From Actinomycetota bacterium (GTDB lineage: Bacteria > Actinomycetota > Thermoleophilia > Gaiellales > Gaiellaceae), in NCBI GenBank assembly GCA_005885245.1, contig VAWR01000059.1, positions 12,077 through 76,076 on the forward strand: 64,000 nt of DNA, in the 5' to 3' direction. Under the pieces are notes generated by a model. The model was given only the letters and a program-made list of their open reading frames with translations, was not told where the DNA came from and did not search any database. The first letter of the stretch is position 1; every line of letters begins with the position of its first letter. The position numbers and the translations under genes are program-made. Positions 4,713 through 32,300 of this stretch are shown piece by piece.

Positions 4713-4727
4713 CCCCCTTCGAGGCAG

Positions 4728-4811
4728 TGCCGAAGGTGGGACTCGAACCCACACGAGGTTTCCCCCACCGGATTTTGAGTCCGGCGCGTCTACCAGTTCC
4801 GCCACTTCGGC
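4728..4811 (-). tRNA. tRNA-Leu (anticodon CAA)
   Basis: The minus strand reads GCCGAAGTGGCGGAACTGGTAGACGCGCCGGACTCAAAATCCGGTGGGGGAAACCTCGTGTGGGTTCGAGTCCCACCTTCGGCA. It has a 7-bp acceptor stem (GCCGAAG/CTTCGGC), an anticodon loop CT-CAA-AA, a long variable arm (class II), a GGTTCGAGTCC T-arm and discriminator A. CCA is not encoded. Confidence 0.92.
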
Positions 4812-25816: not shown

Positions 25817-25913
25817 GCGGCGAGTATAGGGAGGGCGCTGAACGGCGCTCCCTGGGCTGCCAAGCGGCTTTGCTACCATCGTCGCGCCCGCGCACCGCGG
25901 GCCTTTTCACGCG

Positions 25914-26177
25914 ATGCCGAACATCAAGCAGCAGAAGAAGCGCGTTCGCACGGCGGCCAAGGAGCGGCTGGAGAACCTGCACTACCGCTCGACGGCGAAG
26001 ACGCTCGCCAAGCGTCTCGACTCGGCCGTCCAGTCCGGCGACCAGACCCGCGTGGACGCCGAGCATCGTGAGCTCGTGCACTGGCTCGACCGCGCGGCGG
26101 CAAAGGGCGCGCTCCACCGGAACACGGCCGCTCGCCGCAAGGCGCAGGCGGCCAAGCTCGTCGCCGGCAAGCGCTAG
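25914..26177 (+). CDS. rpsT: 30S ribosomal protein S20
   Basis: MPNIKQQKKRVRTAAKERLENLHYRS ... an 87-aa basic protein with the typical S20 N-terminus. Confidence 0.95.
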   Translation: MPNIKQQKKRVRTAAKERLENLHYRSTAKTLAKRLDSAVQSGDQTRVDAEHRELVHWLDRAAAKGALHRNTAARRKAQAAKLVAGKR

Positions 26178-29353: not shown

Positions 29354-31744
29354 TTAGCCGATGACGAGGTTGACGAGCTTCCGCGGCACGACGATCGTCT
29401 GCCTGATCTCGCCGCCGTTCAGATGCGCCTGCACCTTCGGCGAGGCTTTCGCCCGCGCGACGAGCTCGTCCTCAGGCAGGTCGGCCGGAACCTCGAGGCG
29501 GTCGCGCACCTTTCCGTTCACCTGGACGACGAGCTGGAACGTGTCCTCCTCGAGCATGGTCGGATCGGCCTCCGGCCAGGGCTGCAGCCACAGCCGCTCG
29601 TGTCCGAGCCGCTCCCACAACTCCTCCGCGATGTGCGGGGCGTACGGCTGGATCAGTGACACGGCCGTCTCCGCCGCGAAGGGCGCGGCGGGATCGTCCG
29701 GCGCCTTCACCAGCTCGTTCACCAGCTCCATCACGGCGGCAATCGGGGTGTTGAACTGCTGGCGCCGGCCGAGGTCGTCGCTGACGCGCGCAATCGTCTG
29801 GTGTGTCTTCCGCGCCAAGGCACCGGCTCCCGGGGCGCTGCCTCGCGGCAGCTCCGCTACTTCGACGACGACCCGCCAGAGACGGCGCAGGAAGCGTTGG
29901 ATCCCCTCGACGCCGGACGGGGTCCACTCCATGTCCTGGTCGGCTGGTCCGATGAACAGGATCGAAAGACGCGTCGGATCCGCGCCGTAGGTCTCGACCA
30001 GCTCGTCAGGCGTGGCCGCGCCGCCCACGCGTTTCGAGATCTTTGCGCCGCCCTGCGTGACCCAGCCGTTGCCGAAGAAGCGCTGGAAGGGCTCTCGGTG
30101 GCCGAGCAGGTCGAGATCGTTCAGTGCCTTGACGAAGTAGCGCGCATAGATCATGTGCACGGTCGCGTGGTCCACGCCACCGGTGTAGTGATCCACCGGC
30201 ATCCAGTAATCGGCGATCTCCCGGTCGTAGGGCGCTCGGTCGTTGAGCGGGTCGCAGTAACGGAGGAAGTACCACGACGAGTCGACGAAGGTGTCCATCG
30301 TCTCGACCTCGCGACTGCCCTCCTTGCCGCAGCGCGGGCAGGCGACGCGAACCCAGTCTTCGGCCTGCGCCAGGGGCGGGATCCCCTTGGGCTTGTAATC
30401 CTCGATCTCCGGCAGCAGCACCGGAAGGTCTTCCTCGGGAACAGAAACGATGCCGCACTCGTCGCAGTAGACGATCGGAATCGGACACCCCCAGTAGCGC
30501 TGGCGCGAAAACCCCCAGTCGCGCAGGCGATAGCTCACCGCCGTGCGGCCGCGGCCTCGAGAGCCGAGCCACTCGACGATCGCCCTCACAGCTTCTTCGT
30601 GCGACATTCCGGAGAACTGCGCCGACTCGACGAGCTTTCCGTCCTCGTCGATGACCAGCTTGATCGGCAGATCGAAGCGCTTCGCGAACTCGCCGTCCCG
30701 TTCGTCGTGGGCAGGGACCGCCATGATCGCGCCCGTCCCGTAGTCCATCAGGACGTAATCGGCGATCCAGATGGGCATCTTTGCGTCATCGACCGGGTTC
30801 GTCGCGAAGAAGCCGGTGAAGACGCCTGTCTTGTCGGTTCCGGCCGCGCGCTGCTCCACGGGCCTGGCCCCGACCTTGCGTACGTAGGCTCGGATCTCGT
30901 CGCCGTTCGGAGACCGCTCGGCGAGCCGGTCGACGAGCGGGTGCTCGGGGGCGAGGACGAAGAACGTGGCGCCGAACAGCGTGTCGGCTCGCGTCGTGAA
31001 GACCGGAATGTCGAGATCGAGCTCGTCGACACGGAAGAGGATCTCCGCGCCTTCGGAGCGGCCGATCCAGTTGCGCTGCATCGCCAGGACCCGCTCGGGC
31101 CAGTCCAGCTCCTTCATCTCGTCGAGGAGGTGATCGGCGTAGGCGGTCGTCCGGAAGAACCACTGGTCGAGCTTGCGTGCCTCCACCTCGAAGCCGCAGC
31201 GCTCGCAACGACCGTCTTTCACCTGCTCGTTCGCCAGCACCGTCTGGTCGTTCGGGCACCAATTGACCAGCGCAGCCTTGCGGTACGCGTGTCCGGCCTC
31301 GAACAGCTTCAGGAAGAGCCACTGCGTCCAGCGGTAGTACTCCGGGTCGTGGGTCGAGAACTCGCGCGACCAGTCGATCGCCCAGCCGAGGCGCTTCATC
31401 GTTCGCCGGATCGCCTCGATGTTGCGCTCGACGATGTCGCGGGGATGCTCACCCGCCTTGATCGCGGCGTTCTCGGCCGGCAGGCCGAAGGAGTCGTAAC
31501 CCATCGGACGCAGCACTTCGGAGCCGCTGCGACGGTAGAAATGCGCCAGGACGTCGCCCAGCGTGTACACCAGGACATGGCCGATGTGGAGCCTGCCGGA
31601 GGGATACGGCAGCATCTCCAGGACGTAGTTCTTGCGCTCGTTCCGCGGCGCTCCCGGCTCGGGATTCGGCACCTCGAAGGCGCGGCTCTCCTCCCAGATC
31701 CGCTGCCACTTCGCCTCGATTGTCTGCGGGTCGTATCTGTCCAT
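29354..31744 (-). CDS. leuS: Leucine--tRNA ligase
   Basis: It has MDRYDPQTIEAKWQRIW, a HIGH-type motif (PSGRLHIGH) and a KMSKS-type motif (KISKR). The ATG at 31744 is preceded by GAGGA. The TTG at 31756 in the track is less likely. Confidence 0.95.
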   Translation of the reverse strand: MDRYDPQTIEAKWQRIWEESRAFEVPNPEPGAPRNERKNYVLEMLPYPSGRLHIGHVLVYTLGDVLAHFYRRSGSEVLRPMGYDSFGLPAENAAIKAGEHPRDIVERNIEAIRRTMKRLGWAIDWSREFSTHDPEYYRWTQWLFLKLFEAGHAYRKAALVNWCPNDQTVLANEQVKDGRCERCGFEVEARKLDQWFFRTTAYADHLLDEMKELDWPERVLAMQRNWIGRSEGAEILFRVDELDLDIPVFTTRADTLFGATFFVLAPEHPLVDRLAERSPNGDEIRAYVRKVGARPVEQRAAGTDKTGVFTGFFATNPVDDAKMPIWIADYVLMDYGTGAIMAVPAHDERDGEFAKRFDLPIKLVIDEDGKLVESAQFSGMSHEEAVRAIVEWLGSRGRGRTAVSYRLRDWGFSRQRYWGCPIPIVYCDECGIVSVPEEDLPVLLPEIEDYKPKGIPPLAQAEDWVRVACPRCGKEGSREVETMDTFVDSSWYFLRYCDPLNDRAPYDREIADYWMPVDHYTGGVDHATVHMIYARYFVKALNDLDLLGHREPFQRFFGNGWVTQGGAKISKRVGGAATPDELVETYGADPTRLSILFIGPADQDMEWTPSGVEGIQRFLRRLWRVVVEVAELPRGSAPGAGALARKTHQTIARVSDDLGRRQQFNTPIAAVMELVNELVKAPDDPAAPFAAETAVSLIQPYAPHIAEELWERLGHERLWLQPWPEADPTMLEEDTFQLVVQVNGKVRDRLEVPADLPEDELVARAKASPKVQAHLNGGEIRQTIVVPRKLVNLVIG

Positions 31745-31761
31745 GACCGTCCTCAAGAACG

Positions 31762-31784
31762 AAAAAGCCTCTCGTCTGAGAGGC
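31762..31784 (-). terminator. Intrinsic-terminator-like hairpin plus U-run inside the leuS 5' leader (candidate attenuator)
   Basis: The minus strand reads GCCUCUC-AGAC-GAGAGGC (31784..31767) followed by UUUUU (31766..31762). It lies 17 nt upstream of the leuS ATG, and no upstream minus-strand gene exists for it to terminate. Confidence 0.6.
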
Positions 31785-31826
31785 CGTGGGGAGCCGGCAC
31801 GGCTTTCGCCGCGGTCGCTCCCTTCC

Positions 31827-31847
31827 CTACAGAAGCAGCTCTTTCAT
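31827..31847 (-). promoter_or_regulatory. Candidate leader mini-ORF MKELLL-stop in the leuS leader
   Basis: ATG AAA GAG CTG CTT CTG TAG on the minus strand, with three consecutive Leu codons. It lies 43 nt upstream of the terminator-like hairpin. The only SD-like element is a weak GGGA 5 nt upstream. Confidence 0.4.
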
Positions 31848-31904
31848 CGCGTCCCAAGGGTAACAAAGCGATAGCTTGGCGTCATCCCGTCGAAGGAGGA
31901 TTGC

Positions 31905-32300
31905 ATGGCCGGATACACGGTGCAGAACCTGAAAGAGGTCGAAAACCAGGGCGTGAAGTTCGGGATGGACGAGAGCGATCTGGAGTTTCGGTCTGCGAAG
32001 GTGCCGCTCGACTGCGAGCACTGTGGCGTCTCTTACCTGAAGATCGGCTCAGGTTGGCGCGTGCCGTGGGGCCACACTCACAAGACCCAGGAAGAGATCT
32101 ACATCCTCGTCAACGGCAGTGCCCGGATGAAGATCGACGACGAGCTCGTCGAGATGCAGCCCTTCACGGCGGTTCGCGTGGCGAAGGAGGCGATGCGAGG
32201 GTACGAAGCCGGCCCCGAGGGAGCCGAGCTGATCGTCATCGGCGCGCCGAGAACCGGGTCTGGAGATGCGGACCTCGAGCACAACTGGTGGAGCGACTGA
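31905..32300 (+). CDS. Cupin domain-containing protein
   Basis: The 131-aa protein has a cupin-type pattern (PWGHTHKTQEEIYILVNG ... VRV). A strong SD (GAAGGAGGA) lies 5 nt before the ATG. Confidence 0.7.
   Translation: MAGYTVQNLKEVENQGVKFGMDESDLEFRSAKVPLDCEHCGVSYLKIGSGWRVPWGHTHKTQEEIYILVNGSARMKIDDELVEMQPFTAVRVAKEAMRGYEAGPEGAELIVIGAPRTGSGDADLEHNWWSD

Follow-up and report, generated by a model that had tools for sequence, protein, structure and literature searches.

Leader-peptide control of an aminoacyl-tRNA synthetase (aaRS) gene has its textbook case in pheST of Escherichia coli. The 64,000-nucleotide stretch of contig VAWR01000059.1 analysed here (the window), from an actinobacterium of the Gaiellaceae, raises the question of whether leuS, the gene for leucine--tRNA ligase, is governed in a comparable manner, with a very small open reading frame (ORF) of consecutive Leu codons and an intrinsic terminator lying between promoter and start codon. 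A sequence-only reading of the window had proposed that these two elements attenuate leuS. This proposal is favoured by the present analysis, the mini-ORF, its Leu codons, the hairpins and the U-run being kept together among relatives, and only at leuS. Judged on comparative sequence evidence, the leader is a real, conserved element specific to leuS, and it probably acts in cis as a ribosome-mediated, Leu-tRNA-dependent attenuator of leuS transcription.

Layout of the leuS leader

The elements follow one another on the minus strand in the order below, with coordinates given in the window and distances in nucleotides (nt).

31857..31865, minus strand: extended -10 promoter box TGtTACCCT (consensus TGnTAnnnT), its TANNNT hexamer aligned in 128 of 129 leaders
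31827..31847, minus strand: mini-ORF MKELLL*, ATG AAA GAG CTG CTT CTG TAG, starting 9 nt past the -10 box
31830..31838, minus strand: Leu codons CTG CTT CTG, that is codons -3, -2 and -1 before the stop
31817..31822, minus strand: P1 5' strand GGGAGC (R1), 4 nt past the mini-ORF stop, partner at 31794..31789
31798..31813, minus strand: P2 hairpin CGCGGC-GAAA-GCCGTG, inside P1
31789..31794, minus strand: P1 3' strand GCTCCC (Y2), the partner of R1
31762..31785, minus strand: intrinsic terminator GGCCTCTC-AGAC-GAGAGGCT, 3 nt past P1, hairpin 31785..31766 and T-run ending at 31762
31750..31754, minus strand: Shine-Dalgarno-like GAGGA of leuS, read from the sequence
29354..31744, minus strand: leuS (leucine--tRNA ligase), the gene proposed to be regulated; TIGR00396, 965 bits against a cut-off of 548

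Read on the minus strand, every coordinate that the sequence-only reading had given for the mini-ORF, P1/P2, the terminator, the U-run and the GAGGA motif was borne out. The terminator core GCCTCTC-AGAC-GAGAGGC (31784..31767) is extended by one outer G.U pair to 8 bp and is followed by TTTTT at 31766..31762, with 17 nt between this run and the leuS ATG (31744). The gene upstream of the leader is divergent, running on the plus strand from 31905 (its Cupin_2 match is weak and below the Pfam cut-off), so that no minus-strand gene needs a terminator at this position, as had been argued.

Conservation of the leader and its link with leuS

The case against chance comes from comparative data. The folding score of the whole intergenic stretch is unremarkable (170 nt, z-score -1.36), and a relaxed terminator scan of 5 kb returned 4 sites, the leuS terminator included, against 2.2 expected. 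Canonical sites with a hairpin and T-run are rare in this genome; a strict scan of the 64 kb window found three, among them the leuS leader, and a covariance model built from Gaiellales-type leaders has a single match in the window.

Relatives were collected in two ways. In the protein-anchored sample, species-representative genomes were scanned with the LeuS N-terminus and the leader played no part in the choice. The LeuS of the window groups with Gaiellales/Thermoleophilia-like Actinomycetota, with a top identity of 73% in these genomes, and the leader lies directly 5' of leuS in 11 of the approximately 45 closest loci selected by LeuS protein similarity alone; the other loci lack it, and its distribution within the clade is therefore patchy. 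These 11 and the window make up the 12 protein-anchored leaders, all of which carry the core CCTCTC/GAGAGG followed by at least five T. A metagenome scan used a DNA pattern instead, composed of the P2 3' strand, the terminator core and the U-run, and matched at least 120 contigs. In 119 of the 120 metagenome matches listed, leuS is directly downstream, the exception being L162. After removal of duplicates, the combined alignment A1 holds 129 distinct leaders, all directly upstream of leuS and 117 of them from the metagenome matches listed, and it is to these that the counts below refer. Independent evidence comes from what the search pattern left free, namely the promoter box, the mini-ORF, P1 and the 5' strand of P2.

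The resulting compact motif of the Gaiellales type (ca. 85 nt) is new in its architecture and is not in Rfam, and the literature searched gave no earlier description of such a leader for this Gaiellales-like lineage.

Promoter and mini-ORF

The extended -10 box TGnTAnnnT is well kept, four of its bases (G in the TG, and T, A and the last T in the hexamer) each being conserved in at least 90% of the leaders. The mini-ORF starts 5–11 nt past it (mode 7–9). In actinobacteria, an extended -10 promoter at this distance gives a transcript that opens with the start codon or is only a few nt longer at its 5' end, so that the mini-ORF, judged by promoter spacing, is most likely leaderless. Its weak Shine-Dalgarno sequence, which the sequence-only reading had counted as a weak point, is thereby explained and loses its weight. 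An ORF of 5–8 codons is present in 128 of the 129 leaders and has six codons in 97, opening with ATG (91), GTG (35) or TTG (2) and closing with TAG (107), TGA (17) or TAA (4). Among the long ORFs of the window, UAG makes up about one third of stops (16/48, a crude count). The UAG preference of the mini-ORF could reflect RF1-specific or slow termination.

A leaderless mini-ORF also leaves no upstream RNA from which a T-box or an antiterminator could be made, which bears on the possibility that the region belongs to the T-box or another catalogued RNA family. Like the proposed attenuator, T-boxes use a terminator to adjust aaRS genes to tRNA charging, and they are the usual control of such genes in Firmicutes. 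Here, however, there is neither a specifier loop nor a T-box sequence, the transcript leader, beginning at the mini-ORF, is only ca. 100 nt and far too short, and sensing would go via the ribosome. The search against Rfam that had been suggested as a check gave, for 31650..32000, no match to the T-box (RF00230) or any other Rfam 15 family at the gathering threshold or at E<=10; neither the enterobacterial Leu leader nor other Rfam leader families matched, and the sole hit was a chance miRNA on the other strand (E=9). Membership of a catalogued family has therefore next to no probability. Actinobacteria have been described as lacking classical T-boxes, save unusual ones at ileS (Seliverstov et al. 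2005, PMC1262725).

Leu codons of the leader peptide

Two positions of the mini-ORF are fixed. Codon -3 encodes Leu in 126/129 leaders (CTT 70, CTG 40, CTC 16) and codon -2 in 128/129 (CTT 98, CTC 29, TTA 1), CTT or CTC thus occupying codon -2 in 127, whereas the amino acid varies at codon -1 and at codons 2–3. Changes at the two fixed positions are almost purely synonymous, among CTT, CTG, CTC, TTA and TTG, which argues for selection on decoding, beyond the RNA sequence alone. The codon preferred is a rare one, CTT accounting for 55% of the leader Leu codons as opposed to 2 of 65 in leuS and about 6% in the ORFs of the window. The enterobacterial leu leader likewise places a rare codon in the sensor position, the CUA codons of E. 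coli leuL being the parallel.

Codons of this kind could serve other ends than waiting for charged tRNA. Hungry-codon frameshifting at CUU-CUN, or read-through of the UAG, would allow a ribosome to run on and unwind P1/P2 and the terminator. The frames past the terminator are indeed open in 114 (+1), 106 (+2) and 113 (0) of the approximately 129 leaders, and in the window the +1 frame runs into that of leuS. Yet the three frames are about equally open, as GC-rich sequence predicts, about 12% of the leaders have early stops, and the frame of leuS relative to the mini-ORF is uniformly distributed (43/42/42), which leaves this explanation extremely unlikely.

Structure of the leader RNA

Folding, another of the checks that had been suggested, yields exactly the proposed structures, with both the minimum free energy (MFE) and centroid predictions of ViennaRNA consisting of the P1/P2 and terminator hairpins, at -23.2 kcal/mol for P1 plus P2 and -13.2 kcal/mol for the terminator. 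RNAalifold alone recovers P2, the terminator and part of P1 from the alignment. Overall, 96.3% of the cells in A1 are paired, as against 41–62% in slid controls. P1 covaries: its A1 columns 79:112 hold GC in 49, AU in 39 and GU in 33 leaders, and columns 81:110 hold GC in 83, AU in 11, CG in 6 and GU in 14, values that were reached in 0 of 500 shuffles. P2 is nearly invariant, with 99.9% of its cells paired, and its loop varies in length and sequence; all 25 one-sided changes in its stem are G.U wobbles, which argues for a constraint on the RNA. For the same reason the inverted repeats are not read as a DNA operator, since such changes keep RNA pairing but not DNA symmetry. A mutual-information scan over all column pairs of A1 mostly picked up phylogeny and alignment noise and gave no useful information.

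P1 starts 4 nt past the mini-ORF stop and the terminator 44–48 nt past it, leaving a gap of 3–5 nt between P1 and terminator, and both distances, stop to P1 and P1 to terminator, are nearly fixed across the leaders.

Near-invariant helices may also indicate that a trans-acting factor, be it LeuRS, another RNA-binding protein or a small ligand, binds P1/P2 and the terminator stem and sets termination, with the mini-ORF playing a secondary part. Autoregulation of an aaRS gene is known from E. coli thrS. The sequences of P2 and of the terminator stem are kept beyond what pairing needs even though LeuS itself is only 60–73% identical, and one leader (L031, considered below) retains its hairpins without a Leu ORF. 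On the other hand, the internal loop and both hairpin loops, the usual sites at which RNA sequence is read, are variable, no Rfam riboswitch matches, and the mini-ORF is as strongly conserved as the hairpins. Binding of such a factor is accordingly considered quite improbable.

Search for an antiterminator

A number of results weigh against attenuation by the leader peptide, and they concern the sample, the sensor and the switch. With regards to the sample, the three elements of the search pattern are invariant by construction in the 117 metagenome leaders. With regards to the sensor, the mini-ORF of L198 holds a single Leu codon only, and a genome-derived leader (L031:1381-1489) keeps promoter box, P1/P2 and terminator, whereas a short deletion, seen in comparison with L114, has removed its Leu codons and mini-ORF stop; the leader may be a natural 'sensor-less' variant or else reflect an assembly error in a metagenome-assembled genome. 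The conservation that had been asked of the leader is found for the mini-ORF and for P1, with L031 as a case of hairpins that persist without the Leu ORF.

With regards to the switch, the sequence-only reading had been unable to draw an antiterminator by eye, and none was found here either; the difficulty is, however, more than one of drawing, as an antiterminator is absent from thermodynamic modelling and covariation tests alike. When the first 0–52 nt are masked, as by a ribosome, the terminator keeps a probability of at least 0.87 in the window and in four relatives. Forbidding the terminator 5' strand costs about 11 kcal/mol and leaves the mini-ORF as the next-best partner for the 3' strand. 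Candidate helices fared no better. The P2 3' strand GCCGUG could form 6 bp in the window with CACGGC of the linker and terminator 5' base, but the fifth pair is mismatched in 113/129 leaders and pairing stays at shuffle level. A hairpin of the Leu tract with R1 shows no excess of pairing or covariation in the A1 columns, and in energy it is only slightly better than shuffles. R1 pairs only marginally with the terminator 5' strand (12/200), and Y2 hardly at all with the terminator 3' strand. Because no antiterminator was found, the direction of regulation is assumed from analogy rather than derived.

One trace of a classical design is nonetheless seen. The 12 nt before the mini-ORF stop are specifically complementary to the terminator 3' strand, a significant signal with a duplex energy of -8.5 kcal/mol as opposed to -5.1 for shuffled tracts (0/200). 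In a classical four-region attenuator, region 1 is like region 3 and region 2 like region 4, and complementarity of this sort is the footprint expected of such a design. In the present leader, 'region 3' occurs twice, one copy in P1 and one in the terminator, and the two structures are consequently not mutually exclusive. That no mutually exclusive antiterminator was found lowers the claim of a trp-type attenuator; it does not lower that of leader-peptide sensing.

These results speak for a constitutive leader as an alternative. Under this explanation the terminator attenuates partially and to a fixed extent, or is a 5' structure with a stabilising role, the mini-ORF has some other purpose, for example ribosome loading on a leaderless transcript or protection of the 5' end, and leucine is not sensed. 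The terminator is predicted in every ribosome state, no alternative pairing is supported, and an rpsT-like gene in the window is also directly preceded by a similar promoter, hairpin and U-run, with no obvious sensor ORF. What a constitutive leader leaves unexplained are the two fixed Leu codons with their near-exclusively synonymous changes, the preference for a rare Leu codon and the restriction to leuS, and it is for these that the explanation is held to be unlikely.

The Leu tract could alternatively act on translation. The mycobacterial polycysteine leaderless small ORF Ms5788A works by translational attenuation, its codon tract pairing with the downstream Shine-Dalgarno sequence (bioRxiv 10.1101/834739). 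It resembles the leuS leader as an actinobacterial leaderless small ORF in which a run of one codon senses charged tRNA for the gene downstream, and differs in that it acts on translation and has no intrinsic terminator. Applied to leuS, a free Leu tract would pair with the ribosome-binding site (RBS) region, which a stalled ribosome would set free. CUUCUY is complementary to purine-rich Shine-Dalgarno sequences, and the MFE structure pairs the Leu codons with the region past the terminator in 29 of 124 full leaders. The mean duplex energy of Leu tract and RBS is, however, -6.8 kcal/mol, compared with -7.2 for a shuffled tract and -7.2 for permuted partners. A canonical terminator is present, and several loci lack any Shine-Dalgarno region. 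Translational attenuation of this type is thus very unlikely. In nine leaders (L123, L165, L167, L169, L183, L195, L197, L198 and L200), leuS starts 0–7 nt past the U-run; this leaves no room for a Shine-Dalgarno sequence, so that leuS must there initiate without one or use the purine-rich 3' strand of the terminator.

Proposed mechanism

Under leader-peptide attenuation, transcription would start from the extended -10 promoter, no more than about 3 nt from the mini-ORF start codon, and a 70S ribosome would translate the six-codon leaderless ORF while RNA polymerase makes P1/P2 and the terminator. The fixed Leu codons -3 and -2, mostly CUU/CUY and rare in the genome, would presumably be decoded by tRNA-Leu(GAG). 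The leading edge of a ribosome lies ca. 12–13 nt past the first base of the A site, and P1, counted from the first base of codon -2, starts at +13. A ribosome that waits at codon -2 for Leu-tRNA should for this reason stop just short of P1 and leave it folded, whereas one with the stop codon in its A site would cover and melt the six-nt P1 5' strand. The signal passed to the terminator 3 nt downstream would thus be an intact P1 under starvation or a melted P1 when leucine is replete. By analogy with other aaRS attenuators, stalling is assumed to lead to read-through into leuS, and fast translation to termination.

How the state of P1 might reach the terminator allows for a tentative suggestion, itself rather unlikely, in which no antiterminator helix is needed. 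The intact, rigid P1/P2 would itself block termination, either sterically, by keeping the terminator stem from being completed within the RNA exit channel, or by a put-like action on RNA polymerase. The put RNA of phage HK022 is known to have such a cis action on the enzyme. On reaching the UAG, a ribosome would melt the P1 5' strand and so permit termination, and one stalled at the Leu codons, one P1-strand length short, would allow read-through. If true, this would explain why the spacings are fixed, why UAG is preferred, why the helix sequences do not vary and why all RNA-pairing models fail.

Comparison with known systems

Leader-peptide control of leuS is a concept already known, while the Gaiellales-type structure is new. 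The sequence-only reading knew of no described leader-peptide attenuator for leuS, a claim that does not hold for Streptomyces. Classical attenuators were predicted 5' of leuS in Streptomyces avermitilis and Streptomyces coelicolor (Seliverstov et al. 2005, PMC1262725), and the RNA-seq annotation of Streptomyces lividans TK24 has, before leuS, the leaderless peptide leuL2 (MRAVRLLLSEPR) with a hairpin and U stretch behind it (Droste et al. 2021, PMC8079986). The present leader has in common with leuL2 the gene, the phylum, a short ORF with consecutive Leu codons, here probably leaderless, and a hairpin with a U stretch. The ORF has 8–17 codons there as opposed to 6 here. The first hairpin here is the nested P1/P2 with a purine-rich 5' strand 4 nt past the stop, the terminator stem has another, invariant sequence (CCUCUC/GAGAGG), and the antiterminator hairpins reported in Streptomyces have no counterpart that could be found.

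Leaders of the Streptomyces kind are also present at protein-anchored loci of the class Actinomycetes. Nine of these (L046, L055, L056, L057, L059, L061, L062, L071 and L080), from the genera Streptosporangium, Thermoactinospora, Microlunatus, Kribbella, Nonomuraea and Nigerium, have leaderless LL(L) ORFs about 30–125 nt upstream of leuS. The leuL2-like leaders include MRAATLLLTRPHRPSRR in Streptosporangium, MRPGTLLLSGPRRP in Thermoactinospora, MRVSLLLS in Kribbella, MYRKELLS in Microlunatus and one in Nigerium; the Nonomuraea ORF has one Leu codon only. The parts follow in the order seen in the window, with a long GC hairpin that starts at the stop codon and abuts the terminator. Ribosome-mask folding of nine Actinomycetes-type leaders kept the terminator, the sole alternative being one in Streptosporangium that still ends at the U-run. 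The Gaiellales-type covariance model matches the leaders of Kribbella, Microlunatus and one further locus over its full length, weakly and under rough calibration (E 0.03–0.6). Common descent of the Gaiellales-type and Actinomycetes-type leuS leaders is plausible.

With the classical enterobacterial attenuators (trpL, leuL of leuABCD and pheM-pheST), the leader shares a short ORF rich in cognate codons 5' of an intrinsic terminator, and a Leu tract complementary to the terminator 3' strand. It differs in being translated, as predicted, without a Shine-Dalgarno sequence, and in that P1 and the terminator share no nucleotides, with no antiterminator in any modelled state. The analogy with pheM and leuL that had been drawn for this locus is consequently sound as to the Leu ORF and terminator, and fails as to the defining feature of those systems, a mutually exclusive antiterminator.

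The case for leader-peptide control of leuS in actinobacteria was previously based only on the prediction of 2005 and the RNA-seq annotation of 2021, to which the present set adds at least 129 examples from a barely studied soil lineage (Gaiellales/Thermoleophilia), together with a motif that Rfam lacks and that is usable in annotation pipelines. All that makes up the sensor here is an ORF of six codons, probably leaderless, in which two Leu codons are fixed. Lacking an antiterminator and having exact spacing, the leader offers a small (ca. 85 nt) and clean test case for the coupling of ribosome position to termination without competing helices, a question that dates from 2005, when actinobacterial leaders with 'missing components' were noted.

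Neighbouring features in the window

A second terminator-like 5' structure before a translation gene lies at 25868..25916 on the plus strand. It consists of a promoter of the same type as at leuS, TTGCTACCAT, and, about 6 nt on, the hairpin GCCCGCG-CAC-CGCGGGC with a U-run, and an ATG 7 nt past this run opens, without a Shine-Dalgarno sequence, an S20-like protein (MPNIKQQKKRVRTAAK...), the rpsT-like gene mentioned above.

Closer to leuS, a 64-aa GTG ORF called at 31827..32021 on the minus strand is no gene but a mechanical artefact of ORF calling, in which the frame of the mini-ORF continues antisense through the start of the cupin gene. The small cupin-like divergent gene itself (31905..32300, plus strand) adjoins leuS in at least two relatives as well (L002 and L004). 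Other relatives have different genes upstream, so that the leader goes with leuS rather than with the gene beside it. The only tRNA gene in the window is a tRNA-Leu(CAA) at 4727..4811 on the minus strand, which reads UUG and not the CUY of the leader.

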